Both the position numbers and the translations under genes were made by a program. This document shows, in pieces, positions 21,520 to 42,524 of a DNA stretch of 64,000 bases (positions are counted from its first letter, which is position 1; the number at the start of each line of letters is the position of its first letter). The DNA lies in assembly GCF_055900595.2 (NCBI RefSeq), contig NZ_CM148325.1, one strand, 5' to 3'. The notes under the pieces were generated by a model. That model worked only from the letters and a program-made list of their open reading frames with translations. It searched no databases and was not told where the DNA came from.

Positions 21520-22383
21520 CTATTTTTTATGATAATCAACAATATCATGAATAATTATTTCATTTTCTGTTTCAGAATATAAAACTCTATCTCCCCCTCT
21601 TCCTTTACCACTTCCTGGTAAGTCGGCTGCTGATTTCCCTTTTAAATCACCATGTAAAGAATGCTGGTTTTTTCCTGACTCACCACGAGAAAGCATAATT
21701 TTAATAGCATCATAGGCTTCAGCTTGTTTTCCTTTGAGCGCATCCCCCTTCTTCGCCGCCAAATCCTCCTCTATGATGGTTTTCATTTGGGTAGGACATT
21801 TTTCACCTGCCAGCCCCCACGGGTCGCACCAACCCACCGGATTATGCACATAAGACTGCGTATCCAGCCCGCCGCTCAGTTTCAGCGGATCCTGGCTTAA
21901 ATACTGCCCCGTCCCGGCGTCGTAGTAGCGGTGTAAATTATACCACAGCCCGCTCTCCTCATCCTGCCACTGGCCCATGAAGCCCGCATCGCAGCTTTCA
22001 CGCTCACTGTCCGGCGAGTCGTTTGCAGCCAGCCCCCACAGGCTGCGGTGTTTCGTCCACACCTTCCGCCCGTTCGCGCAGTACATCTCCTGCGGCGCGC
22101 CGTCCGGGCCGGTCACTACCGGGTAAAAATAACTTCTGTCATCATTCGCCGCCCGGCTTTCCTTCGCCAGCAGTTCAAATCTGCCCCCGGTAGTGCCACT
22201 GCTCCCGTAGCGCCGGGCTGCCGTCTGCATAGCGTTTCTCACTTGTGGAAAGCGCCATCCCAAGCCACTGGTAGCGTACTTCGCTGATGGCGTGCGGGCT
22301 TCGTTTCCACGCTGCCCGGATAACGCAGCGTTTTGCCGTTCGTCTGCCAAAGGCGTCGTAGCTGTACTGCCACACTTCACCAT
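21520..22383 (-). CDS. rhs: Rhs C-terminal segment: end of Rhs core (DPxGL motif) plus YoeB/RelE-like toxin domain; out of frame with the upstream Rhs ORF
   Basis: Contains GLWYNLHRYYDAGTGQYLSQDPLKLSGGLDTQSYVHNPVGWCDPWGL (Rhs core end) followed by ~95 aa ending ...GKGRGGDRVLYSETENEIIIHDIVDYHKK resembling YoeB/RelE toxins; overlaps the main Rhs ORF in another frame over 22175-22383. Confidence 0.7.
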   Translation of the reverse strand: MVKCGSTATTPLADERQNAALSGQRGNEARTPSAKYATSGLGWRFPQVRNAMQTAARRYGSSGTTGGRFELLAKESRAANDDRSYFYPVVTGPDGAPQEMYCANGRKVWTKHRSLWGLAANDSPDSERESCDAGFMGQWQDEESGLWYNLHRYYDAGTGQYLSQDPLKLSGGLDTQSYVHNPVGWCDPWGLAGEKCPTQMKTIIEEDLAAKKGDALKGKQAEAYDAIKIMLSRGESGKNQHSLHGDLKGKSAADLPGSGKGRGGDRVLYSETENEIIIHDIVDYHKK

Positions 22384-25300
22384 CTGGTGTCTTTATCTCG
22401 CGCAGACGGTCGAAGTCATCCCAGCGGTAGCGCCACTCCTGCGGGCGAAAGCCGAGTTTTTGGTCGGTGCGCTTTGTCACCCTGCCGCAGGCGTCGTATC
22501 CGTAGCGGCTGTCACCGGCCTGGTTCACACATTCATTATTGTACTGGTGCTGCGACAGAATACCGTTTATCCGGCTTTCCGCTATCTGCTCATTGACCGT
22601 ATAGCGGTAGCGCTCTTCCTGTGCCGGACCACTGGCGTCCAGCCGCAGTACGCTGGTTATCTGGTCGCGGGCATCGTACTGGTAGCGCGTTTCCCGCTCC
22701 GTACGCGTTTTCGACCACACTTCATGCCCGGTCAGGCGGCCCGATTTATCCCACGCGTAACGGTGTTCGCCCAGCGGTCGCCACGATGCCACGCTCTGGT
22801 GGCTGCCTGCCAGCCGCTCTGCGCCCTGTTTTTGCCATGCCGTACGTCCGCAGGTGTCGTATCCCTGCTCCTGCATATAGACCGCATGGTTCAGCGGCGT
22901 CTGCGCCAGCCAGCTTTCCTCATCCTCCGGGCGGTAACGCCGATTTTTTTCAAGGCCCGCGGGGGAATGACTGAAGTCCATCCGGTGACCGTTGCTGCGG
23001 TAGCCCGTCAGAATGCCCGAAGCGTCGTATTCTCTCTGTGTTTCCCCGTCCGGCGTTGTGGTGCCAGTCAGCCTTCCGGCTTCGTCGTAACGGTACTCCG
23101 TGCGCTGGCCGTCCTGCTCTTCCGCCACCAGACGATGGCGTTCGTCCCACTCCAGTTTTACCTCACTGGTGAGCGTATAGCCTGCTTCACTGCCGTCGCT
23201 GCGCTCATACACCTGCGCACTCACCATCCGGTCATGGCGGTCGTACTGATAGCTGAGTTTCTGATGCTCGCCGCTGATGGTCGCCACCCGGCCATATTCA
23301 TCCCTCGCATAGCGCCATACGCTGCCGTCCGGGCGGTGTTTTTCTGCCAGCCGGCCCTGTTCATCACGGATATAGACGGTTCTGCGTCCCGACCAGTCCT
23401 CCTCCCCGGCCATCTGGCCCGCCGCATCGTAGTACAGCCGCCACTGCTGGTTGCCGCTGCGCGTAAGCTGCGTGAGCCTTGCGGCACCATCGTAGTCGCA
23501 AAGTATCCGCTGCCCGCCCGCGTCCTCCACTTCCCGCAGCAGGTCAAATGCCCCGTGGCGGTAGCGCGTGGTCTGGCCCATGGCCCCGGTGTGGAGAGTG
23601 ATTTTGCCTTCACCATCATAGCGGAAGGTTTCAGCGCCACCGTCGGCCCGGATTACTGCGCTCAGTTTCTCATGCGGGTTATCGGCACCGGGGCGGTACT
23701 GCCAGTTCACGCTGCGCCCTTCAGCATCCACCAGCCCCGTCAGCCGCAGCCAGCGGTCTTCCGTGTAATGGGTTGTGCGGCCTTCACCATCGGTATGGGA
23801 AAGCAGGCCACCGTGAGCGCTGTAGCTCCACTGTTCGTGGCTGCCGTCCGGGTACTGTATCTCCTTGAGCAGACCGTCTTCGGTATGACGGTACTGCCAG
23901 TTCTGCCCGTTCACCTCCCGGCGGATAAGATTCCCTTCGGCGTTATAATGGTACGCCGCCGTGGTGCGGTGGTCCTGGTATGCCGTAACCTGACCAAATT
24001 CATCCCACTGCCATTCACGTTTACGCCCGTTCTCGTCCGTTTCGCTCAGGATACGCCCGGCATAATCGCGTTTTATCTGAGTAATGCGCCCACCCGGCTG
24101 GCGAATACACAGCGGCTGGTCGTATTCGTTACGCTCCCATTCAGTGATACGCCCCAGCGGGTCACGCTGTTTTTTCAGCAGCCAGGACTCATCGAACCAC
24201 AGCGTGGTGGTGGCTCCGGTGGCATCGGTGTAATCGGTTCTGCGCTCCTCCGGGAAGTAGCGGAAGGTGTCGTTATACAGGCCTTCCTGTGTGCCTGTGG
24301 CAGTCACCCGGCCTTCATCGTCATAGCGCAGGTGGAAGTGCGTCGGGCCGTTGTCGCGCCAGGAACTCAGCCAGCCCTGTTCGGTATAGGTATAATGCAA
24401 CGCGCCATTAAAGCGGGTCTGCACATCGCTCAGTCGCTGTTCATCGCCGTGACTGATATAGTCATAGCGCACCAGCTCGCTGCCGTCTGACTCGTCGATC
24501 ACACGGAATATCTGCCCCTGCGGGCCACACATCACCCGCAGATTCAGGCCGCTGCTGTGGGTTACGTTTGTCAGTTGGCCGATGACGTTATAGGTGAAGC
24601 GAATTTCGTTGCGGTTGCGGTCTTTTATTGCCGTTAGCCGCAGGCGGCGTGCGCCGGGGGAGATGGGCGTAAAGATATAACCCAATTGTGAGTATTCGTC
24701 GAAGATAATAGCCCGCTCACGGTTTCCCAGGAGGCGATAGTGCGGGACAAGCAGGTTACGGCTACTGTATGGTGCCTGCTCCGTGGAGTAGGCCAGACAT
24801 AGCCCCTCAGCATCAAAGTAGGTGACGTTTTTCCCGTTGCAATCGAACTCCAGAAACTGCGACCAGTTACACAACCAGCGACTGCCCAGCAAACCACTAA
24901 CCGGATGTCGGCCTGTATAAGCACGTTTCAGCGTCAGCGGTAAAATATGCGGATAGTTGAAATCAGTTCGGTAATCCAGATATTCACCCGTTCCGGTATC
25001 CACCGGATCGCTGAACCCCTGACTGATACGCTCATTTGCGGCTCTGTTTAACTGCTTTGCTCCCCATAGAGCTGTTAACACTTCCAGACTTGATACAACA
25101 GATTGCTCCAGCACCGTCATATCGGCATTAATCGGCCCATACTGTCCGGTCGTCTTATCAGCCGTAATGGTTTTACATCCTTCCTGAATAACTGCCGAGC
25201 AGGTAATTTTATGGCCCTTACGCGCCAGCGGCAGGCTGTTGACGGAAATAATTTTGCTCCCTTCCACTATCTGTGGAGGAGGACTGCCCGGATCCTTACT

Positions 25301-25942
25301 ACATTCAACCGGATCAGTGACGCGAGCTACCGCTTTTCCTTCAAAAAAAACATTAGGAGAGCCTTCTACAATCTGTCCGGTTTCAGATGCCCAGCGGGAA
25401 CCAATTACCATCGCTGCGCCACCGACAAATCCACCAGCTAATCCCCCGGCCCCGGCAGCAACGGTGGCAGCCAGCACACCCAATGCCGCGCCCCCTGTAG
25501 CGACAACCAGAGCTCCCACTGCAATCCCTACAATAAGTCCACCGATTAACCCACCAATAGCACCCAGAAAGGAATTGTTATGAACAATGTGATGACCCAC
25601 ACACGCAGGTATATCTGTTGGGCCGGAAACTGCGTGATCTTTACCCCAGGTATCCATGAACCAGTCACCTGCTTTGGTGCCCAGCCATCCCCCCAGCATC
25701 CCGCCAACCAGTCCGGCAATCAAAGGGCCTCCAAATCCTGCAACAGCTTTGGCTATTCCGGCTGCACAGGTGTTTGCTGCTGCGGCTGCCAGTCCTACCT
25801 TTGCCGTTGCTCCCACCATACTGACAGCCATTATTCCAGTACTGGCAATATGTCCTGTGGTAGCAATACTCTCCACTGTTTCGGCATTACTGTCCCGTTG
25901 ATCCAGCTCCGCTAACTTCTCCTGCGCGCTTTTTTCCGTCAT
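22175..25942 (-). CDS. rhs: prePAAR-TMD-PAAR-Rhs T6SS effector, main ORF (YD-repeat shell)
   Basis: 1255-aa ORF: N-terminal region with Gly-rich transmembrane helices and PAAR-like segment (GSPNVFFEGKAVARVTDPVEC), then many YD repeats; stop at 22175 where another frame continues. Confidence 0.8.
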   Translation of the reverse strand: MTEKSAQEKLAELDQRDSNAETVESIATTGHIASTGIMAVSMVGATAKVGLAAAAANTCAAGIAKAVAGFGGPLIAGLVGGMLGGWLGTKAGDWFMDTWGKDHAVSGPTDIPACVGHHIVHNNSFLGAIGGLIGGLIVGIAVGALVVATGGAALGVLAATVAAGAGGLAGGFVGGAAMVIGSRWASETGQIVEGSPNVFFEGKAVARVTDPVECSKDPGSPPPQIVEGSKIISVNSLPLARKGHKITCSAVIQEGCKTITADKTTGQYGPINADMTVLEQSVVSSLEVLTALWGAKQLNRAANERISQGFSDPVDTGTGEYLDYRTDFNYPHILPLTLKRAYTGRHPVSGLLGSRWLCNWSQFLEFDCNGKNVTYFDAEGLCLAYSTEQAPYSSRNLLVPHYRLLGNRERAIIFDEYSQLGYIFTPISPGARRLRLTAIKDRNRNEIRFTYNVIGQLTNVTHSSGLNLRVMCGPQGQIFRVIDESDGSELVRYDYISHGDEQRLSDVQTRFNGALHYTYTEQGWLSSWRDNGPTHFHLRYDDEGRVTATGTQEGLYNDTFRYFPEERRTDYTDATGATTTLWFDESWLLKKQRDPLGRITEWERNEYDQPLCIRQPGGRITQIKRDYAGRILSETDENGRKREWQWDEFGQVTAYQDHRTTAAYHYNAEGNLIRREVNGQNWQYRHTEDGLLKEIQYPDGSHEQWSYSAHGGLLSHTDGEGRTTHYTEDRWLRLTGLVDAEGRSVNWQYRPGADNPHEKLSAVIRADGGAETFRYDGEGKITLHTGAMGQTTRYRHGAFDLLREVEDAGGQRILCDYDGAARLTQLTRSGNQQWRLYYDAAGQMAGEEDWSGRRTVYIRDEQGRLAEKHRPDGSVWRYARDEYGRVATISGEHQKLSYQYDRHDRMVSAQVYERSDGSEAGYTLTSEVKLEWDERHRLVAEEQDGQRTEYRYDEAGRLTGTTTPDGETQREYDASGILTGYRSNGHRMDFSHSPAGLEKNRRYRPEDEESWLAQTPLNHAVYMQEQGYDTCGRTAWQKQGAERLAGSHQSVASWRPLGEHRYAWDKSGRLTGHEVWSKTRTERETRYQYDARDQITSVLRLDASGPAQEERYRYTVNEQIAESRINGILSQHQYNNECVNQAGDSRYGYDACGRVTKRTDQKLGFRPQEWRYRWDDFDRLREIKTPDGEVWQYSYDAFGRRTAKRCVIRAAWKRSPHAISEVRYQWLGMALSTSEKRYADGSPALREQWHYRGQI

Positions 25943-26436: not shown

Positions 26437-28656
26437 TTACTGTGGATTTAGCGCCAGATGGGTGGGTCCATCGAGGGTGATAGTGCCGTCTGAATTCATA
26501 ACAAGAGTGCTTTTTCCGACAGTCAACTTTATCTGCGTTGCTGCGGTAAGGTGTATCGCCCCGGTTTTTGACGTGATGGTGATATTCCCTTCTACCGTCT
26601 CCGTGCAGGTTCCCGTTTCTACCGTCACCTCGCGTTTACCCGTTTTCACCGTCAGAGACTGGTCGCCTTCCGTTACGGTAATATTCCGGTTGCCTTTGAT
26701 GGTTTCGGTATGCTTACCATCAACAAATTCCGTGCGGTCGATTTTTACCGTGGATGTTTCGTTATGAATGATGGTTTTCGTCCGATCTGCCTTTACCGTG
26801 TGTGTTTCGTTATTTTTCACGACGGTATTCAGATCTTTCTCCGCAAGAAACCTCACTTCTTCCGCCCCCGTTTTATCGTCAAAGCGCAGCATGTTTCCGT
26901 TGGTCGCCCCCCCCTGTAACGAGTGGCTGAATATCCCGCTCTGCGACGCCATGCCCGGTAGCCCCCACGGCGGCATGGTGTCCTGGTTGTAGGTGCGCCC
27001 CACGATAATCGGTAGATCCGGGTCGCCATTTTTGAAATCCACCAGCACTTCCTGGCCGATGCGCGGGATCTGGATCATGCCGAATCCTTTACCCGCCCAC
27101 GGATAGCTGACGCGGATCCAGCAGGAGCTGTTTTCGTCATTATTACCGTAACGATCCCAGCCAAACTGCACCTTCACCCGGCCATATTTATCCGTCCAGA
27201 TTTCCTGCCCTACCGGGCCGGTGACGATGGCGCTCTGCGGGCCTTTGGTGTGGGGTTTGCTCAGGGTTCGTTGTGGGCGGTAAACTTCGCGGGTGGGATG
27301 CAGTTCAAACGTGGTGACATAGGTAAAATGCTGATCCTGGCCGCTGTGCTGCGCGTTGTCCCGTAAAAACAGCGTGGTTTGTACCAACAGATATTCCTGA
27401 TTAATTTCTGCCGTCGGGTGATTCATCAACGTAAAGGTGTACCCGGTCATGAGGGTACGGATATGACCGGCCCCATGTGCCCGGCTGCCGGGGCTGCGCT
27501 GCGCTTCCATACGAATGCGCGTCAGCATCTCACCTTCGCCCGTAGTGAAGTAATCACCAGGCCATTCATAATGCTCATATTCAGCATGACCGGTATTACG
27601 CGGACTAGCCACGGTACTTTTAAGCAGCGAACGAGGCTTCATAAAATCAAAATCGTCCATCACCCACTTTCCAGTACGCAGTCTCTCACTGGCCGTAATG
27701 GTGTGGATAAATTCTTTGTCCAGTTTCAGCCCTTCCTGGTGCCACTCCACCAGTGGCGAGTCAGGGCACGCTTTATGACCATTGATGGCATCCGTCAGCA
27801 CCAGCGTATGGCAGTTCTCGCTGTGCTCAAACCACCAGTAGATTCCCCACTCCTGCATCAGGCGCTGGATGAAATCGAAGTCGGTTTCACCATACTGCAC
27901 CTGCCAGACGCGGGGTGGATAATTTTCCACCAGCCGCTTTTCCACCGGAAAGGAATATTCATCCAGTACTTCATCGAGAATATCCACCACGGTTTTGTTC
28001 TGGAACGCTTTGTAGTCGCTGGTATGGGTCAGCAGCTTCAGCCATGGCTCAATGCGTAATTCATACGTTACCGAACGGCCCTCATGGCCGACCACCCTCG
28101 CCGCCGTCACCAGCCCGCTGATATACCGTTTTCCGCCACCGTCCAGTTCGATACTGACGCACAGGTCTTTGCCTACCATGGGCTGAAGCGGCAGGTTGGC
28201 CGCGGGGGAAACGTATCCCAGGTTCAGGGCGTCCGGCGTTTTAAGCTGTACTGTGTAGGAAAACAGATTCCCAAGCCCTTCCGAACCATTCATGCCTGCG
28301 AACAGCAGCATCTGCGGCGGCACCGAACCACCACTTACTGTGACGTTATGCGCCCCCGGACCACCGGCTGCAAGCGACGCCGCCGCATCCTGAACTGCAC
28401 CAGCCATATCCGATATCCCTGCTGCTGCGGCGGCGGCTTGCGCAGCGGCTACTGCGGCTTTAACCAGACCTGACGGTTCCGGCAACGCACCAAACAGGTC
28501 CGCCACTGCCTGTTCTGCCATCTGCTCGGCGGCATCAGCTACATCGGTTGCGGCTGAACCTGTGCTCATACTGCCACTTTCGCCAGCTATTGGTGGTGTG
28601 GTGATGACGGGTCCACCGTTTCCAACTGGTTTATTACCCGTAGATACAAAACTCAT
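26437..28656 (-). CDS. vgrG: T6SS spike protein VgrG (TssI) with ~110-aa Ala/Gly-rich N-terminal extension
   Basis: 739-aa ORF with gp27/gp5-like regions (e.g. [15 protein letters not shown]) and C-terminal beta-helix repeats; canonical VgrG N-terminus begins after residue ~110. Confidence 0.9.
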
Positions 28657-28680: not shown

Positions 28681-29067
28681 TTAAAATCTAGCCCCTGGTG
28701 GCCAAAAAATATAAGTAATCACTCTCCATTGCCCGTCTTTATAATGAAACCAACATGTCAGATTCAAATCCCCCTGCAAATTCCAGAACATTTCCTTAAT
28801 AGGAACATTTTGAAATTCAGGATCTGTTATGCGATAAGTTTGATTCAAGCCGATATAATACTCACCAACAAATTTATATCGTGGCCTCACGAACTCATGA
28901 GCAGGCGGCCCATATTTCTTCATAAAAAAGATGTCATTACTTCCATCATGTATATCATTTTCTTCATAATATTTGGTGGATTGAGCAACTGCAGAAGGCG
29001 AGAAAACATTCACTGTAGTTATGTAAGTTATTGAAAGGAAAATCACTATAATACAGAAAAATTTCAT
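28681..29067 (-). CDS. Putative periplasmic immunity protein for the adjacent HExxH effector
   Basis: 128-aa ORF with N-terminal signal-like hydrophobic segment; overlaps effector stop; C-terminal half conserved with the paralog at 30776-31147 (PIKEMFW..GDLNLTC.FHYKDGQWRVI.Y.FWPPGA.F). Confidence 0.6.
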   Translation of the reverse strand: MKFFCIIVIFLSITYITTVNVFSPSAVAQSTKYYEENDIHDGSNDIFFMKKYGPPAHEFVRPRYKFVGEYYIGLNQTYRITDPEFQNVPIKEMFWNLQGDLNLTCWFHYKDGQWRVITYIFWPPGARF

Positions 29068-29765
29068 TTGGTTACATTCAATAAAGTAAATTTAGTTTCA
29101 GGCATTATGACATTCAACGTTATAGTTGCGTTTTTAAGGTATCGTTCCCGAAGCTCCATTCCCACATTCATCAACCCACTAATATCTCCAACATACGGAG
29201 ACGAAGAATCATAATCATCATCTAAGTAACCAAGTACATGTCCGGCTTCATGAGGTATATTTACTTGCAACGTATTATTACAGTTAATACATTTCGCTAC
29301 TTTTTCCAGGTCCGCTGAATCAACATGAACCGTACTGTTTTTAAAATCAACATATGTTCTTAAATCAGCACCAGGCAAAACCTTTGTTGCAATAACCAAC
29401 CAGTCTTCATTCTGAGATGCAGAAATTATTCTTACATCAAAAGGCAAAGCTTTACCCTGAAATTTTTTAGCGAACTCAGATTCACCGGAAACAGAATAAG
29501 TTATTTTCCCATTCCATGCCTGCTGAACAGATAAATATATCGCTCGCATAAAAATAGCTTTTTCCCATATAATCCAGTCATCTGTAACGGTATTATCTTT
29601 ATACCACTCATACTTCCATCTTATCACAGCCGTAATCGAACCAGTATTTTGATTTAATAAATACGTCCTCCTACCATCCTTATGTATAATGATATCGCCA
29701 TCAATATTTGTTTTTTCATAGTATTCGGCCAGCAAACTATTCTCATCATATTTAAGCTTGGTCAT
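29064..29765 (-). CDS. Putative T6SS effector with HExxH zinc-metallopeptidase-like motif
   Basis: 233-aa ORF, no signal peptide, contains NIPHEAGHVLGY; followed by overlapping signal-peptide ORF; sits between vgrG copies. Confidence 0.6.
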   Translation of the reverse strand: MTKLKYDENSLLAEYYEKTNIDGDIIIHKDGRRTYLLNQNTGSITAVIRWKYEWYKDNTVTDDWIIWEKAIFMRAIYLSVQQAWNGKITYSVSGESEFAKKFQGKALPFDVRIISASQNEDWLVIATKVLPGADLRTYVDFKNSTVHVDSADLEKVAKCINCNNTLQVNIPHEAGHVLGYLDDDYDSSSPYVGDISGLMNVGMELRERYLKNATITLNVIMPETKFTLLNVTK

Positions 29766-29831: not shown

Positions 29832-30751
29832 TTACGAGTATTGCCCCTTCAGCCGCAGCGCATCCACATACCGTCCTTCACTGCAGGGCAAGATTACGAA
29901 AGCCCGCCCCGCAAGGACTGACGCGAGGTAGTTTCTGTCCATGGCTGCTTTTATCATCTTACGTCTTAACCCTGCCTTGGTTTCGCCGTACTGCACCTGC
30001 CAGGCGCGGGGTGGATAATTTTCCACCAGCCGCTTTTCCACCGGAAAGGAATATTCATCCAGTACTTCATCGAGAATATCCACCACGGTTTTGTTCTGGA
30101 ACGCTTTGTAGTCGCTGGTATGGGTCAGCAGCTTCAGCCATGGCTCAATGCGTAATTCATACGTTACCGAACGGCCCTCATGGCCGACCACCCTCGCCGC
30201 CGTCACCAGCCCGCTGATATACCGTTTTCCGCCACCGTCCAGTTCGATACTGACGCACAGGTCTTTGCCTACCATGGGCTGAAGCGGCAGGTTGGCGGCG
30301 AGGGAGACATATCCGAGGTTCAGGGTGTCCGGGGTTTTAAGCTGTACTATGTAGGAAAACAGGTTTCCAAGCCCTTCCGAACCATTCATGCCTGCAAACA
30401 AAAGCAGCTGCGGCGGCACCGCACTACCACTTACTGTGACGTTATGCCCCCCGGACCACCGGCAGCAAGCGACGCCGCCGCATCCTGAACTGCACCAGCC
30501 ATATCCGAGATCCCTGCTGCGGCGGCTGCGGCTTGCGCAGCAGCTACTGCGGCTTTAACCAGACCTGACGGTTCCGGCAACGCACCAAACAGGTCCGCCG
30601 CGGCCTGTTCTGCCATCTGCTCGGCTGCATCAGCTACATCGGTTGCGGCTGAACTGGCGCTTACAGCACTACTTTCTCCGGCTATCGGTGGCGTGGAGAT
30701 AGCTGGCCCACCGTTACTGCCAGATTTATTACCCGTAGATACAAAACTCAT
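29832..30751 (-). pseudogene. vgrG: Truncated, frameshifted vgrG duplicate fused to H-repeat and tagF 3' remnants
   Basis: Two ORFs (30431-30751 and 29832-30419) match the first ~270 aa of the full vgrG; frame broken at a C-run near 30445-30455; 3' end reads ...[24 protein letters not shown] (H-repeat protein C-terminus) then ...[10 protein letters not shown] (tagF C-terminus). Confidence 0.75.
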
Positions 30752-30775: not shown

Positions 30776-31147
30776 TTAAAATTTTGCGCCCGGCGGCCAG
30801 AAAAAATAAGAAATAACCCGCCACTGTCCATCTTTATAATGAAAAAAACATGTCAGATTTAAATCCCCCCGCAAATGCCAAAACATTTCTTTGATGGGGA
30901 TATTTCTGAATTCAGGATTCGTTGAGCGATAGACATTTTCAATCTCTATATAATACTCACCGACTAATTTATAACGAGGCTTTATAAATTCATACGCTGG
31001 CTGACCATAGTTATTTAATAGAACATTCTCTTCAACTCCATTATACACACCACTCGCATTCAGATAAGCATACCCAGGAATATCAGACATGCTATTTTTC
31101 GCCCCACCCACTATCAAAAAAATAATCACAGCGTATATTAGTTTCAT
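30776..31147 (-). CDS. Putative periplasmic immunity protein (paralog of 28681-29067)
   Basis: 123-aa ORF with N-terminal hydrophobic signal-like segment; C-terminal half conserved with the other immunity paralog. Confidence 0.6.
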   Translation of the reverse strand: MKLIYAVIIFLIVGGAKNSMSDIPGYAYLNASGVYNGVEENVLLNNYGQPAYEFIKPRYKLVGEYYIEIENVYRSTNPEFRNIPIKEMFWHLRGDLNLTCFFHYKDGQWRVISYFFWPPGAKF

Positions 31148-31160
31148 TTTTTTACGCTTT

Positions 31161-31882
31161 TCACAAAAAATTAGAACCCGGAACCATTCTATTTAACCGC
31201 TCAATGACATTTCCCATATAACGAGAGCGCAGTTCCATACCAATATTCATTAACGCACTGGCATCCCCGGAGAATGGTGTAGTTGCTTTATCTGCATCAT
31301 CACTATAGTATTCATCGGTAAGATATCCAATAATATGCCCAAGCTCATGAGACAGCCCCATTTGCTTAGAGCAAACTTTTGATGAACCAAGACATTTAGC
31401 TGCTGCAACTATATCTTTAGAGTCAAGTTCAACGTATCGACTATTCCAGACAATGGAACTCTGACGAAAACTATTTGGATCATCATTATCAATTTTAAAC
31501 ACCACCACATCCCAATACCCATGACGATCAGTCTGAATTATTTCTATTGTGAAAGATAAATCCTTACCATTAAACTTACTGACAAACTCAGACTTCCCAG
31601 AAACGGATAAAAAAACCTTATTATTCCATGTTTGATTAATGACAAAAATAACTTTTCCATGAAAGGCTTTTTTTCCATATCTGTCCAATCAGTTTTTGCA
31701 TCCCATCTTTTTATCCAATTATATTTCCATCTCAGCAACAATGAGATTGCACCATTTTCACGGTCAATTCTTAAATCTCCCCAGGCATCATTGTCCCTGA
31801 TATATCGTTTATCCAGCATTAAGTCGTCATAAGCATCGTATGCCTGCTGAATAGCCTCATCATGAGAGTCACCCATGTTCAC
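31161..31882 (-). pseudogene. HExxH-motif putative effector, paralog of 29064-29765, apparently frameshifted
   Basis: Two overlapping ORFs (31544-31882 N-terminal part, 31161-31688 C-terminal part with HELGHIIGY and LMNIGMELRSRY); frame break near a T/A homopolymer at ~31660-31690. Confidence 0.6.
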
Positions 31883-32068: not shown

Positions 32069-32190
32069 TTATTTTTTTTCCAACCGCAGCGCATCCACAT
32101 ACCGCCCCTCGCTGTTCTGCTGCCACAACCAGCCCAGCCCCTGCTGCGCCTGCGTTAACATTTTTGCTAGCCAGCACGGTCACGGCAGGC
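32069..32190. repeat. Remnant of tagF 3' end
   Basis: Minus-strand reading gives [26 protein letters not shown], matching the C-terminus of the intact TagF at 33163-33260 ([31 protein letters not shown]). Confidence 0.75.
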
Positions 32191-32206: not shown

Positions 32207-32680
32207 CTACTCATCCGTACAACCCAGCCCCCGGCGCTGAACCACTTCACTGGCAAACGTAGCTCCGGTTTTTTTCATTATTCCTTTTTGTATTTTTTGC
32301 AGCGCGGGAAATGAGATTCTCCTGCATGAATCCTCTTCCCATATATCACCAGTTACAGGGCTAACTGAAAATAGTCCCCACACATCTGTCGCTCCGGCGG
32401 AAGGAGAATCATAACCTACCCCAAAACTAAAATACCCAGGATGATACAGGTTACCTTTTTTATCTTTCAGAGAACCGTCAAGAAAAAACCCAGACAATTC
32501 CACATTATATTTTTCATTTTTTAGTGAAAAAACCAATAATGCCTGCGCCTGTATTTCAGTAAGACCTGACTGGTTAACAGTCGTTAGATCAAACCGCGGC
32601 ACATTCCTGATAAGAATTTCAGCACAACAATTCACGGACACGACCATGAAAAGCAATACTGATATTAATTTACAGGACAT
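32207..32680 (-). CDS. Putative periplasmic immunity protein for the adjacent GH73-like effector
   Basis: 157-aa ORF with signal-like N-terminus MSCKLISVLLFMVVSVNCCA; overlaps effector stop. Confidence 0.5.
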   Translation of the reverse strand: MSCKLISVLLFMVVSVNCCAEILIRNVPRFDLTTVNQSGLTEIQAQALLVFSLKNEKYNVELSGFFLDGSLKDKKGNLYHPGYFSFGVGYDSPSAGATDVWGLFSVSPVTGDIWEEDSCRRISFPALQKIQKGIMKKTGATFASEVVQRRGLGCTDE

Positions 32681-33135
32681 GTTATTCTCCGCTTAACCAT
32701 ATTAATCACCCCCACTAACTCACTAGCATAACCGGTATGGCCGCCATTACTGTTTTTACCTGAATTAAAACCAGAATCAATCAATGCCTGCGCAAATTGC
32801 TCCGGAGATTTTTTATTTCTGACCGCATTACCAAATCGGATTGCAAAGGACTTTCCGCTAGTTGAAAAAGAGGTATAAGTGGCAACCCACACTTGATTAC
32901 TCCCCAGCGGGTGAACCTGTCCTGACTGTAAAGGTGCCGGACCATGCATGGAAAAGTAGTTATTGTATTCTGTCGCGATTCTACCCTGCCCGTAAAAGGA
33001 CTCCTTTGCAGCAAGCCCCAGGATATTTTCCACAGGCACATCAAGTTGCTTAGCGATTAATTCACATTCTTTCAGATATTGCTGTACAAACCTGACTGCA
33101 CCAGTGTTATTACAGGCTTTATCATAAGACCCCAT
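32665..33135 (-). CDS. Putative T6SS glycoside-hydrolase effector (GH73/FlgJ-like glucosaminidase motif)
   Basis: 156-aa ORF without signal peptide; LGLAAKESFYGQGRIATEYNNYFSMHG resembles the GH73 catalytic-Glu region (A-x-E-S-x-x-G ... NN-x-F-G) as remembered; directly downstream of tagF. Confidence 0.5.
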   Translation of the reverse strand: MGSYDKACNNTGAVRFVQQYLKECELIAKQLDVPVENILGLAAKESFYGQGRIATEYNNYFSMHGPAPLQSGQVHPLGSNQVWVATYTSFSTSGKSFAIRFGNAVRNKKSPEQFAQALIDSGFNSGKNSNGGHTGYASELVGVINMVKRRITCPVN

Positions 33136-33162: not shown

Positions 33163-33933
33163 TTAATGCGGCCGGATATCCAGCCGCAACGCATCCACAT
33201 ACCGCCCCTCGCTGTTCTGCTGCCAGAACCAGCCCTGCCCCTGCTGCGCCTGCGTCAGCATTTTGTCCGGCCAGCCCGGCCACGGCAGGTGGCGCACACC
33301 GGGCAGTTCCACTACCGGCACGTCCGGCAGGCCGGTGAGTTCCCGGCTACGCTGCGGTACACGTCGTAAGCCGCGTAGCCACTGCGCCCAGCGCGGCCCC
33401 GGTCGCCACATCGCCCAGAGCTGGTCTGTCTGCTCCGCCAGTCGACCGCAGCGTTCTGTCTGTGGTGAGACATGAGCTGCCGTCAACTGCGCCAGCCAGT
33501 ACAGCCAGCCCTGTGTGTCATCCAGGCTCTCTTCCAGCCATTCCCGCCCGACACGCTGGTAAATCACCAGTGGCCACGGCCTGCCCGTACTGTCACGCGA
33601 GGCGGTCAGCACCCCGGTCAGCCACTCATCGCGCCCGCCAATGGGGAGAAATCCCGGCGACAGCACAAAACTCCACGGCAATGGGTGGTGCTCCGGTAGT
33701 GCCGTTTTCTCACGTGGTGACAGGTGCATCCAGCCGTCATTTGTTCCGGCCTTCTCGGCATCCGCGCCGTCCGGCACCACGATATGCCGCCCCTGTCCCA
33801 GCCACGTCTGCTGGTTCAGCCACGCCTGCCACACCTGCCCTTCGTTCGCGCTCACCCGCCAGCGCACGTAGTCCCGCTGGTCCGGCAGTCTGCCGAACAT
33901 CGCCGGAGCCGATACCTCTGCCCGGCGCATCAC
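33163..33933 (-). CDS. tagF: T6SS-associated protein TagF
   Basis: 256-aa ORF translationally coupled to the tssM stop (ATGA overlap); region PWSFVLSPGFLPIGGRDEWLTGVLTASRDSTGRPWPLVIY resembles TagF as remembered. Confidence 0.7.
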   Translation of the reverse strand: MMRRAEVSAPAMFGRLPDQRDYVRWRVSANEGQVWQAWLNQQTWLGQGRHIVVPDGADAEKAGTNDGWMHLSPREKTALPEHHPLPWSFVLSPGFLPIGGRDEWLTGVLTASRDSTGRPWPLVIYQRVGREWLEESLDDTQGWLYWLAQLTAAHVSPQTERCGRLAEQTDQLWAMWRPGPRWAQWLRGLRRVPQRSRELTGLPDVPVVELPGVRHLPWPGWPDKMLTQAQQGQGWFWQQNSEGRYVDALRLDIRPH

Positions 33934-36900
33934 AGCGCTCGCTCCGGGCAGGCGAAGCGTTGCAATAGCCCGCGGTTCACCGGGTCAAAATCCCGTCCGG
34001 CGGTGATTTCCAGCACCACCCGCCGCCCGTCAAAACTGTACTCCACCTGCTGTGTTCCCCGTACCACCGTCTCCTGCGCGTTACCCGCATCCAGCAGGTG
34101 AAACAGCGCCCATGGCCCGTTAGTCAGCAACGTCGAGGTGTCCTGGCGGATGCGCGGGCTGGCGGTGATTTCCGCCATTGAGCCGTTGCGCGGCCCCGGC
34201 CAGTTCACTTTCAGCGGCCTGACCGGGCCGTGAGCGTAGCGAAGCACCTGGCCGTCAATGTCAATCACCAGTTCGGTGATGGCAGGGTCCATATCCACCA
34301 CCCGCACCTGCATCGCCCAGGAAAACTTTTTCCCGCCTTCCCCATTAAAAAAAACGCTGCGGATCTGTTTCGCCTCCTGAAACGGTGTCAGGTCCGGCCC
34401 AAGCAACGTCATGTTGCCTTCGGTCGGTTTGTAGCGCCACGGGTTGCTGGCGGTGTCCGCCAGTGGGGCCAGTTGCTTCGTCCAGAACGCATCCAGCACG
34501 CCGCCGCTGGCAAAGATATGGTTAAAATCGTCCGCGCTGACTTCCTGCGGGCTGTCGGTGAAGGGGTAGCGCCCGTCGATGGCGTCGCGGCACTCATCAC
34601 CGATCACCGCTTCCATCTGCGCGTTCAGCACTTCACCGGTGCCGGCGTTGATTTTTCGCGTTCCCTGCTGCGTGAGATCCAGCAGAATATTTTTCAGTGG
34701 CGCGGGCAGTTTTGCCGCCTCCAATTGCAGTTTATCCGCCGCAGAAATGCGGCCAGGTAATGTGCTCGCTGCCAGTGCACTATCAGCGATGGTGAGCTGG
34801 GTGTAATACTCATTGAGCATCGTCAGCAGCGAATTTAACTGCGGCGCGCCGCCGCCCTGCCCGCTGTCTGTCCGCCCGGAAACCACTTCCCGCAAGGCGG
34901 CGAAACGGTCATCCACCAGTGATTTCTCTAGCCGCTCTTCCGGGTGGATGTCCTGCAATAGCTTTGCCGTCTGCACTGCTTTTCCCACATTGCCGGAGAG
35001 CCGGTCCTGCGTGCGCTGGGCCATCTGCTTTTGTCTGGCCTGCGCATCCAGCGGCGGCACCAGCGTGGTCTGCTCCACCACCGCTTTACTCAGGCGCATC
35101 AGCGGGGAATCCGGCGAGGCCAGGGTACGCAGCACCTGAAGGTCATACGCCAGCCCGGGACTGCCGTCTTCCCCGGCACTGTTGATGCTGTGAATACTGG
35201 CCAGAAAATCCTGCCAGCGGCGGGCATATTCAGCCAGGTACAGGCGGCGTACCTCACGGGTAACCGGGAGTTCCTGCCCCGGCAACTGGCTCATCACAAT
35301 ATCCGTCGTTTTTTTTTGCGTGTTTTCCCGGCCCATCACCCAGGCGTCGTCCGCTGATGCGGCTGCGACAAACTCCGACAGCCGTTTGTCGAACAGTTCC
35401 CGGTAGCCTTCGCGAGTGAAGATGCCGGGCACGCCCCGATCCAGCGGCGCGCCATCCGTGCGGACAAAAACCGTTCCCGCATCCGCGCCCACAGCGCGAA
35501 CCAGCGAAAACTCCTGCGGTGCTTCGCTCTCCATGGAAGCCAGGGCTCGAGTGTAGATACGCTCGGTGCTGGTATGGCCGTCAAGGAAAGCTCGCGCCTG
35601 GCGGATCAGCCCCTCATCTTTTTCCCAGGGCAAATGCACCACGCGGCTGCCGTCAAACAGGGCATCGATATGCTCCAGCACGGCGGCGCGACCGCCGAAC
35701 TCCGCCACGCTGTCGCGGTTGCCCAGGTCGTTCAGCACCCAGGCGTGGATCTCCGCCGCGTTGTATTTATCCTCGTGGTCCTTATCGAGGTTCAGCAACA
35801 GATAAACATGCAGGGCGTCATAGGCGGCTTTGCTGTCCTGACGCGCAATCGCATCCGAAAGCACGTATTCCATGCGTTTCACCAGCGGTGGCAGCAGTAA
35901 CTGGTCCAGCAGACGGTCATACAGGGATGCGACGCTCTCCATCACCGGCGGAACGCTGTAAAGACCATAACACCAGGCCAGCGGCGGCGAGTCCGGGTCC
36001 AGTCCCGGCCATGCAGAGAGCGCCCGTGCCTGGTTCAGCAGGGCCGGAACAGGCTGCATAGCAGGTTTTCCGGTATAGGCTTTGACATCACCATCCAGTT
36101 GGGTCGTCCGGCTGGCGATTTCATTCAGATAACCGCTGTTCCCCTGCTGGCTACCCTGCATGCCCTGCCACAACCAGAAAGCCAGCGCCAGTACCAGCAG
36201 ATGCCCGCCAGTACGCAGCAGGCGATAACGCCAGGCCCATTGAAGATTCGGCTCCACCAGGTGCGCTTCGCGGAAGATAAACTGCGTCAGTAGATCGTGC
36301 AGGAAATAGCTGCGGTTGCCGTCCGGCAGGGTATGGGATGGGGAATCAGCCTTCCCTTTGATCGCCCGGACAAAACGCTGCCAGATGCCCGACTGGTCAG
36401 CCACGGCGTCTGCCTGCGCCTGCGCGGCGCTGGTAAAAAATACGCCGCGCAGGGTGTTGTTAAGCTGGGTGGCGTCAAATTTTGAGTCGAGGAAAATCTG
36501 CTCAATGGCTTCCAGCAGCGGCGCACCCAGCGCGGCAAATTCACGCGGGAAGCGGTAGAGCCGCTGGCGGCTTTGAAGGTCGTACTCTTCCTGCAACCGG
36601 GTATCCAGCCCCTGATCCAGCCGCAGCGTCAGGTTTGCCAGTTCCCGGCCACAGAGCGCATGCAGCGACTGCGGATCGCTGGCGTGACGCCTGCGGCTGT
36701 AAGGCAGGGTGAAGCCCCAAACCTGGGCGCGCAGGTGGCTGGTCAGCCCGTGGAAATACTCCGTAAAGCCCGGCAGCAGATCCATTTTGGTGACGACCAG
36801 ATAGACCGGAAAACGAATACCCAGCGTCTCCCGCAGTTCCGCCAGCCGCGCACGCAGGGCCGCACAGGCAGCCAGTCGTTCCGCCGGGGACTGCGCGGTC

Positions 36901-37796
36901 AGATCCGCCACGTTCAGCGTCAGGATCACACCGTTGAGCGGTGCGCCAGGGCGGTGCTTACGCAGCAGCCCAAGAAACCCCTGCCACTCCCCGGCGTTAC
37001 GCTGAGTCGCGCTGATTTCGCCGCCGTCATCGTGGCGGGCATAGCGCCCGGCGGTATCGATGAGTACAGCCTCGTTGGTGAACCACCAGTCACAGTGCAG
37101 CGTGCCGCCGCCCGGCACGGTGAGGATATGCGCGGTCTGCTCCATCTGCTCCGCCAGCGGAAACTGTAGCCCGGTGTTAAGTAGCGCGGTGGTTTTGCCA
37201 TCGCCGGGGCTGCCGATAACCATAAACCACGGCAGTTCGTACAGGAAGCGCTTCCCTTCCAGGACCTTACGCCAGCCGGGCAGGTCCACCCGCAGTTGTT
37301 TCAGTTGCCGGATGGCACGGGTGACAATATGGCTGACCGTGCGCAGGTCGGCTTTAATTTCCCCGGCCACCGGCACGTCTTCCCCGCGCGGATGCAGGAA
37401 ACGGCGCAGCAGTTGTTCATCCAGGCGCAGCGCCCGCCACAGTCGGTACAGGCCATAAAGCGCATAAGTCAGCAGGATCAGGCCGATAAGCGTCAGACGC
37501 AGCCACAGCGGCGCAAACGGGCGAACGTCACCGAAGGCCAGCAGGGGTGAAACAAAACCGATGACCAGGCACAGAACCGTTACGCCAATGATGCTCATCG
37601 ACCAGTTCACCAGCCACAGGGCGAGGAACATCAGTAACAGAACGATGGTGACTACCCGGCTCCCCACAGATGCCAGCGGATGCAGGGTATCAAACGCCAC
37701 CAGCGGCCCGATAAACCAGACCAGCAACGCCAGCATCACCACGCCGACAACGGCCAGCGCGCGGCGGGAAAACAGCATACTGAGAAATTTTTGCAT
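33930..37796 (-). CDS. tssM: T6SS membrane core protein TssM (IcmF)
   Basis: 1288-aa ORF with N-terminal transmembrane helices, Walker A (GSPGDGKTT) and long periplasmic region. Confidence 0.9.
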   Translation of the reverse strand: MQKFLSMLFSRRALAVVGVVMLALLVWFIGPLVAFDTLHPLASVGSRVVTIVLLLMFLALWLVNWSMSIIGVTVLCLVIGFVSPLLAFGDVRPFAPLWLRLTLIGLILLTYALYGLYRLWRALRLDEQLLRRFLHPRGEDVPVAGEIKADLRTVSHIVTRAIRQLKQLRVDLPGWRKVLEGKRFLYELPWFMVIGSPGDGKTTALLNTGLQFPLAEQMEQTAHILTVPGGGTLHCDWWFTNEAVLIDTAGRYARHDDGGEISATQRNAGEWQGFLGLLRKHRPGAPLNGVILTLNVADLTAQSPAERLAACAALRARLAELRETLGIRFPVYLVVTKMDLLPGFTEYFHGLTSHLRAQVWGFTLPYSRRRHASDPQSLHALCGRELANLTLRLDQGLDTRLQEEYDLQSRQRLYRFPREFAALGAPLLEAIEQIFLDSKFDATQLNNTLRGVFFTSAAQAQADAVADQSGIWQRFVRAIKGKADSPSHTLPDGNRSYFLHDLLTQFIFREAHLVEPNLQWAWRYRLLRTGGHLLVLALAFWLWQGMQGSQQGNSGYLNEIASRTTQLDGDVKAYTGKPAMQPVPALLNQARALSAWPGLDPDSPPLAWCYGLYSVPPVMESVASLYDRLLDQLLLPPLVKRMEYVLSDAIARQDSKAAYDALHVYLLLNLDKDHEDKYNAAEIHAWVLNDLGNRDSVAEFGGRAAVLEHIDALFDGSRVVHLPWEKDEGLIRQARAFLDGHTSTERIYTRALASMESEAPQEFSLVRAVGADAGTVFVRTDGAPLDRGVPGIFTREGYRELFDKRLSEFVAAASADDAWVMGRENTQKKTTDIVMSQLPGQELPVTREVRRLYLAEYARRWQDFLASIHSINSAGEDGSPGLAYDLQVLRTLASPDSPLMRLSKAVVEQTTLVPPLDAQARQKQMAQRTQDRLSGNVGKAVQTAKLLQDIHPEERLEKSLVDDRFAALREVVSGRTDSGQGGGAPQLNSLLTMLNEYYTQLTIADSALAASTLPGRISAADKLQLEAAKLPAPLKNILLDLTQQGTRKINAGTGEVLNAQMEAVIGDECRDAIDGRYPFTDSPQEVSADDFNHIFASGGVLDAFWTKQLAPLADTASNPWRYKPTEGNMTLLGPDLTPFQEAKQIRSVFFNGEGGKKFSWAMQVRVVDMDPAITELVIDIDGQVLRYAHGPVRPLKVNWPGPRNGSMAEITASPRIRQDTSTLLTNGPWALFHLLDAGNAQETVVRGTQQVEYSFDGRRVVLEITAGRDFDPVNRGLLQRFACPERAL

Positions 37797-42032: not shown

Positions 42033-42524
42033 TTAAATTTCTTTATTGGCCTTGAAGTCGTAGCCTGCGGTGATGGTGCCGCCGCTGCCACCTTGCTGGT
42101 TTTGCACCACGTATTCCTGCTTCACGGTGCTGAAAGAGAGTTCGACTGTTTCACGGGAGGCAATTTCACCTTCTTTACTGCCGCTGGGCGATACAACCGC
42201 CACAATCAGGTCAGTGAAGGTATATTTGAGATATTCCAGCGGATTGCCGCCTGCTTTACGCATGGTCAGCACAGCTTTCGGAATGTGTTTGCCAGAGGCG
42301 CAGTACTTGAACAGGTTCGGACTGGCGCGATCGATATAGTGGTCAAAGTCCAGGTTAGTCACGGAGACTTTACCGGATCCCAGACCGCTGCCCGCGTGCA
42401 TGGTGGATTCCTGGTGGATATTCCAGCGCCAGCTCAGCACCTCAATTTCATTTTTATGTTTGTCATCCATTGACTCGCCGTCAATACCGTCAATTTTCAG
42501 AAAAATGTCATAAGCCATTTTCAT
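42033..42524 (-). CDS. hcp: T6SS tube protein Hcp (TssD)
   Basis: 163-aa ORF; MAYDIFLKIDGIDGES... typical Hcp N-terminus. Confidence 0.95.
   Translation of the reverse strand: MKMAYDIFLKIDGIDGESMDDKHKNEIEVLSWRWNIHQESTMHAGSGLGSGKVSVTNLDFDHYIDRASPNLFKYCASGKHIPKAVLTMRKAGGNPLEYLKYTFTDLIVAVVSPSGSKEGEIASRETVELSFSTVKQEYVVQNQQGGSGGTITAGYDFKANKEI

Follow-up and report, generated by a model that had tools for sequence, protein, structure and literature searches.

The gene pair and the secretion cluster around it

The stretch of DNA analysed here ("the window") comprises 64,000 nt of contig NZ_CM148325.1 (GCF_055900595.2), from Escherichia coli. Near its middle, two overlapping genes on the minus strand occupy positions 32207-33135. 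The first, tge2 (32665..33135), encodes a 156-aa protein that begins MGSYDKACNN and contains the motifs LAAKESFYGQG and EYNNYFSMHG; it is predicted to be a GH73-like peptidoglycan glycoside hydrolase and a T6SS cargo effector, with Glu45 as the predicted catalytic residue. [quoted passage not shown] The two frames share 16 nt where tge2 ends and tgi2 begins, and each gene is preceded by a Shine-Dalgarno sequence (AAGGAG, 9 nt before the ATG of tge2; GGAG, 6 nt before the ATG of tgi2). RefSeq annotates identical coordinates for the two genes in the copy of strain R32_14_1F, which is 100% identical, and to judge from the PDB matches of the two products (E=2e-46 for the effector and 5e-36 for the immunity protein) the pair of reading frames is far beyond chance. 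A sequence-only reading of the window had proposed two overlapping frames of these lengths, had quoted both motifs and had placed the pair directly downstream of tagF. All of this is borne out: both frames are found on the minus strand, the motifs are present as written in the 156-aa protein, and the gap between the tagF stop and the tge2 start is 27 nt.

The gene immediately upstream, tagF (33163..33933, minus strand), is a T6SS accessory gene (TIGR03373, E=1.4e-10), and its start overlaps the end of tssM (33930..37796, minus strand), which encodes a membrane-complex subunit. The latter gene is named tssM in a near-identical record, and the Salmonella orthologue at this position carries the IcmF Pfam families. 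Also on the minus strand are hcp (tssD; 42033..42524; TIGR03344, E=2.5e-16), which encodes the tube protein, and vgrG (tssI; 26437..28656; TIGR03361, E=2e-165), which encodes the spike protein and lies downstream of the effector cassettes. Altogether, the window holds a complete T6SS, with TssA, B, C, E, F, G, J, K, L and M, Hcp, ClpV, TagF, TagK, VgrG and a PAAR-Rhs protein, and 13 of 13 core T6SS genes are long open reading frames. Hcp is the putative carrier of Tge2 as a small cargo effector, and loading into the Hcp tube is probable because the effector is only a 17-kDa protein.

Two further cassettes, paralogous to each other and both on the minus strand, lie between tge2-tgi2 and vgrG. 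One consists of an effector-like gene at 31161-31882 and a partner at 30776-31147, and the other of an effector-like gene at 29064-29765 and a partner at 28681-29067. Each encodes a 233-244-aa protein with a conserved, metallopeptidase-like HE.GH…D(D/E)EY motif (hence HExxH) and, as its partner, a signal-peptide-bearing protein of 123-128 aa. The HExxH cassette proteins gave no Pfam or NCBIfam hit (the 233-aa protein was the one tested by Pfam), and the HExxH proteins align with 243-aa candidate effectors of Salmonella variable region 2, which have been described as Reprolysin_4/M64-like (PMC10469887). The two cassettes probably represent another type of T6SS effector-immunity pair that acts in the periplasm. 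Relative to R32_14_1F, the window lacks one base each in an A-run and a T-run (31164 and 31667), and these single-nucleotide losses split the second HExxH effector gene into overlapping frames of 175 aa and 112 aa. The frameshifts are either real pseudogenisation or homopolymer sequencing errors; decay of part of the T6SS cluster and homopolymer errors in the assembly are both possible.

Downstream of vgrG and a DcrB-related gene, the PAAR-Rhs gene (21520-25942, minus strand) is likewise split into two overlapping frames, the first (1255 aa) covering the PAAR domain and the YD repeats, the second (287 aa) covering the end of the RHS-associated core and a C-terminal tail. This split may also be a frameshift.

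Family and fold of the two proteins

The effector matches the Pfam family PF01832 (Glucosaminidase/GH73) with E=5.5e-9 and 37.2 bits over model positions 7-121 of 123, and the same hit is precomputed for all full-length effector homologues. Its closest match of known structure is 4KT3_A, the crystal structure of Tge2 from Pseudomonas protegens (E=2.2e-46; 54% identity over 148 aa, query residues 6-153). A PDB sequence search at E<=1 returned nothing besides this chain, and a PDB profile search at E<=10 returned 4KT3_A and GH73 enzymes only, with no other T6SS effector structure. Membership of Tge1, the Tse3 muramidase group, was rejected, as the PDB searches gave no match to Tse3. Among the NCBIfam models, only FlgJ and GsmA produced matches to the effector, all sub-threshold. 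An identity as FlgJ or a FlgJ paralogue was also rejected, since its score for TIGR02541 is 20 bits, below the cut-off of 193, only residues 11-59 (the region of the catalytic Glu) match, and the protein is a single domain of 156 aa.

The AlphaFold model of the effector (built on 28 homologues; pLDDT 92.7, pTM 0.88) points the same way as these searches. Its best Foldseek match is again 4KT3_A (E=1e-15; TM 0.86/0.95), followed by GH73 N-acetylglucosaminidases with E=5e-6 to 8e-4, namely Sphingomonas FlgJ (2ZYC, 3K3T and 3VWO; for 2ZYC, E=5e-6 and TM 0.72), Salmonella FlgJ (5DN4 and 5DN5), Listeria Auto (3FI7), Thermotoga TM0633 (4QDN) and Enterococcus AtlA (7QFU). Matches to goose-type lysozymes and lytic transglycosylases rank lower (15-30) and all have E>0.1, and the Pfam family SLT_2 matches the effector marginally (E=0.13). 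Glu45, within LAAK-E-SFYG, is invariant across the 28 effector homologues, and in the PDB profile search its column aligns with Glu185 of Sphingomonas FlgJ, the catalytic general acid. We located the latter residue as the sole difference between 2ZYC (AALETGWG) and 3K3T, the E185A variant (AALATGWG). The second GH73 catalytic residue (E224 in Sphingomonas FlgJ) lies in a hairpin insertion that has no aligned counterpart in the Tge2 profile.

By sequence and by modelled structure, the 156-aa protein is thus a close homologue of Tge2, with the fold of GH73 (FlgJ-type N-acetylglucosaminidases) and an intact catalytic Glu. The sequence-only reading had assigned it to a GH73-like family from its motifs alone, had taken LAAKESFYGQG for the region of the catalytic Glu, and had proposed a profile search against GH73 and the Tge families; the assignment now stands on 115 of 123 PF01832 model positions together with the GH73 fold of the model, the motif reading on the alignment of Glu45 with E185, and the search narrows the family to Tge2/Tgi2. 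That the effector has no signal peptide, as that reading also held, agrees with its hydropathy profile, which shows no hydrophobic N-terminal segment (within the first 50 aa, no 12-mer exceeds a Kyte-Doolittle value of 1.13).

The effector resembles the GH73 enzymes (FlgJ C-terminal domain, Listeria Auto, Enterococcus AtlA) in its fold and in the position of its catalytic Glu, but it shares only 15-24% identity with them and does not have the rod-binding N-terminal domain of FlgJ. It also differs from the GH73 autolysins in having neither a signal peptide nor cell-wall-binding repeats, and its proposed role is that of an injected toxin with a dedicated inhibitor rather than that of a housekeeping autolysin. 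We rejected the latter identity, like that of a FlgJ paralogue, on three grounds: the effector lacks a signal peptide, it has Tgi2 as an obligatory partner, and its gene is rare among E. coli. The glycan-strand cleavage chemistry and the toxicity of the E. coli effector we infer by homology. The N-acetylglucosaminidase activity of P. protegens Tge2 was itself reportedly deduced by Whitney et al. in 2013 from the structure rather than from a muropeptide assay.

The immunity protein matches Pfam PF21576 (T6SS_Tgi2PP; E=1.4e-13, model positions 1-99 of 102) and 4KT3_B (E=4.7e-36; 47% identity over 123 residues), and two C-terminal cysteines, C119 and C154, are both also present in Tgi2PP; in the NCBIfam search, no family was reached. 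Its N-terminus is hydrophobic over residues 5-16 (Kyte-Doolittle 2.98 for the 12-mer) and is followed by a C-C-A|E site that fits signal peptidase I. A hydrophobic leader is likewise found at the start of five of five Tgi2 homologues read from genomic loci. On sequence grounds, then, the downstream gene encodes a signal-peptide-bearing homologue of Tgi2, and both earlier suggestions about it, that the overlapping 157-aa protein has a signal peptide and that it is the immunity protein of the effector, hold up against the hydrophobic N-terminus with its signal-peptidase-I-type site and against the PF21576 and 4KT3_B matches, respectively.

Relatives, distribution and proposed action

Tge2/Tgi2 is an already described family, which is structurally solved (4KT3) and annotated in databases, with PF21576 as the immunity family, and we regard the pair in the window, with high confidence, as its E. 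coli member. In P. protegens Pf-5, Tge2PP-Tgi2PP has the same two-gene layout, an effector of the same length class, a GH73-like fold and the invariant catalytic Glu, and the immunity proteins of both species have an export signal and the conserved Cys pair (47% identity). The two systems differ in that E. coli has the pair immediately downstream of tagF, within its main T6SS cluster. They also differ in residue 136 of the effector, which is Tyr in E. coli and Phe in Tge2PP, and in the leader of the immunity protein: that of E. coli has a signal-peptidase-I-type site and no obvious lipobox, whereas the 4KT3_B entry of P. protegens is named "putative lipoprotein". P. protegens Tge2 reportedly mediates competition against P. 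putida, and Tgi2 neutralises it (cited in PMC11114119).

The closest parallel in gene order is variable region 2 (VR2) of Salmonella SPI-6, where Tge2/Tgi2 is a known peptidoglycan-targeting pair downstream of tssM (PMC10469887, PMC12288458). As in the window, the order there is tssM-tagF-tge2-tgi2, at the orthologous position, with a copy of the tagF 3′ end after tgi2; beyond tgi2 follow a 243-aa metallopeptidase-like candidate effector, vgrG, DcrB and PAAR-Rhs (cf. PMC10469887). The Salmonella and window effectors share 62-74% protein identity, and the immunity proteins 58%. Salmonella enterica and Enterobacter both have the order tssM-tagF-Glucosaminidase-Tgi2PP, and a PF21576 gene follows every Tge2 homologue examined, including one orphan pair away from T6SS genes.

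The two genera differ in how often they carry the effector, as Tge2 is widespread in Salmonella (150-240 serotypes, PMC10469887) and rare in E. coli, where the pair is present in 12 of 5426 complete genomes. Of these 12, eight carry the allele found in the window (98.7-100% DNA identity) and the other four a second allele (about 74% DNA identity); between the two alleles, protein identity is 63% for the effector and 58% for the immunity protein. The exact effector sequence occurs on 344 contigs in a larger collection, and R32_14_1F, which is 100% identical across the pair, came from a goat in Nebraska. NCBI lists the exact proteins as Escherichia coli, the effector as "glucosaminidase domain-containing protein" and the immunity protein mostly as "hypothetical protein", while two soil isolates with an allele about 99% identical in DNA have the latter named "Tgi2PP family T6SS immunity protein". 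In the second allele group (genomes H34-H37; e.g., L003 6130-7046), the N-terminal sequences look closer to those of the Salmonella pair (L004). Full-text searches of the literature turned up no paper on Tge2 from E. coli. The two E. coli alleles may not cross-protect, and if they do not, within-species competition would be allowed.

We propose that the pair acts as follows. Tge2 would be harmless in the cytoplasm of the producer because it has no Sec signal, and would be loaded onto the T6SS, probably in the Hcp tube, and delivered to the periplasm of Gram-negative neighbours. Once inside, it would hydrolyse the glycan backbone of peptidoglycan, with GlcNAc-beta-1,4-MurNAc as the predicted bond and Glu45 as the general acid, and cleavage would weaken the sacculus and lead to lysis. 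Tgi2 would be exported to the periplasm, where it would bind the effector and occlude its active site, by analogy with the 4KT3 complex, and the producer and its kin would thereby be protected. Through the 16-nt overlap of the two genes, synthesis of the antidote would be translationally coupled to synthesis of the toxin.

The choice of bond is one point at which a different version of this scheme can be considered, with a Tge2-family effector that acts as a muramidase or lytic transglycosylase and cuts between MurNAc and GlcNAc. Specificity here is deduced only from similarity to the GH73 fold, for which the second catalytic residue has no aligned counterpart, and the fold also bears a weaker similarity to goose-type lysozymes and lytic transglycosylases, alongside the marginal SLT_2 match. 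We nevertheless consider this version unlikely, since the best matches other than Tge2 are all GH73 N-acetylglucosaminidases, with E-values well removed from the E>0.1 of the other folds, and the PF01832 match spans nearly the whole GH73 domain. The gene pair might alternatively be intact but silent in an inactive or decaying T6SS cluster, with tgi2 kept mainly as a defence against competitors armed with Tge2. The broken frame of the adjacent HExxH gene, with its 1-nt homopolymer differences from R32_14_1F, and the division of the PAAR-Rhs gene into two frames would fit such a history, although the homopolymer indels could be sequencing errors. Against this, neither tge2 nor tgi2 is truncated, both retain every residue that is invariant in the family and match the R32_14_1F copy at 100%, and all 13 core T6SS genes accompany them as long frames; we judge a silent cassette to be quite unlikely.

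Secretion systems can encode or recruit wall-cutting enzymes for their assembly, as with MltE in the T6SS of enteroaggregative E. coli. Given this precedent, and the location of tge2 directly after tssM-tagF, the protein could in principle be the producer's own wall-remodelling enzyme for TssJLM assembly rather than an exported toxin. We hold this to be highly improbable. The effector has no signal peptide and therefore cannot reach its own periplasm by Sec, and it is always paired with the periplasmic Tgi2 inhibitor. Of the complete E. coli genomes, 99.8% lack it, among them M18, which keeps the tagF 3′ end and has a single cassette flanked by tssM, tagF and a (partial) vgrG. An orphan pair, moreover, exists away from T6SS genes, and the homologous P. 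protegens effector is reported to act in interbacterial competition (PMC11114119).

The analysis confirms the presence of the Tge2/Tgi2 cell-wall toxin pair in some E. coli strains, in the same place as in Salmonella SPI-6, which in itself adds little that is new. It helps to catalogue strain-specific T6SS weapons and to predict which gut strains kill or resist each other, and E. coli Tge2 would offer an easy system for settling the bond specificity predicted for Tge2.

Repeats and possible cassette capture between tagF and vgrG

The tge2-tgi2 cassette is bounded downstream by a non-coding duplicate of the 3′ end of tagF (32079..32189, minus strand; 111 nt), which begins 17 nt after the tgi2 stop. 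Its partner lies inside tagF at 33179-33289, so that the two form a direct repeat with 89% identity and a spacing of 1100 nt; in R32_14_1F, RefSeq marks the duplicate as a partial pseudogene. A third copy of the tagF end (29850-29883; 34 nt, 88%) lies just after a fragment of the vgrG 5′ end. This 770-nt fragment (29979-30747) sits between the two HExxH cassettes and is 99% and 89% identical to 27883-28652 of the intact vgrG; its counterpart in R32_14_1F is annotated by RefSeq as "phage late control D family protein", frameshifted and partial. The order across the interval is therefore tagF, tge2-tgi2, tagF′, HExxH effector-immunity, vgrG′, tagF′, HExxH effector-immunity and vgrG (primes denoting the partial copies), in which a tandem unit of about 2.1 kb, made up of a tagF remnant, an effector, an immunity gene and a 5′ part of vgrG, can be discerned.

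Copies of the tagF end recur in related loci. LHM10-1, which carries the divergent E. coli allele, has the same repeat at the same junction (copy at L003 5999-6112), and Salmonella SPI-6 VR2 has two extra copies of the tagF end (L004 6953-7014 and 8627-8744), making three in all, which separate the cassettes. No extra tagF-end copies were found in E. coli M18, with its single cassette, or in the Enterobacter locus.

The base composition of the cassette also sets it apart, with a GC content of 42-43% against 66% for tagF and 62-66% across tssM and tagF. This low GC content, together with the bracketing by the tagF 3′-end duplicate, suggests that the tge2-tgi2 cassette was acquired horizontally by recombination. 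We go one step further only tentatively, at somewhat less than even confidence, in reading the whole tagF-vgrG interval as a cassette array built by repeated recombinational capture, for which the 3′ end of tagF and the 5′ end of vgrG would have served as homology arms; the reason is that the repeat pattern is what homologous recombination at conserved flanks would leave. A 2023 survey of Salmonella remarked that, with no mobile elements present, a recombination hot-spot was not supported (PMC10469887). The tagF-end duplications suggest a simple way in which effectors could be gained by recombination, and if this route is general, recombinational capture would explain the turnover of effectors in the SPI-6-type clusters of Enterobacteriaceae without mobile elements. 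No description of tagF-end duplicates bracketing cassettes was found in the literature searched, and the bracketing may be a new observation.

Comparison of the window with R32_14_1F shows variation that is unevenly spread over the cluster. The tge2-tgi2 pair is identical in the two and the neighbouring cassettes differ at a few positions only, whereas SNPs are dense in parts of vgrG (26770-28060) and in the 5′ third of tssM (36550-37660). This mosaic is consistent with recombination within the T6SS cluster. Upstream of about position 23980, within the Rhs gene, the window diverges from R32_14_1F, and the toxin tip therefore differs between the strains.
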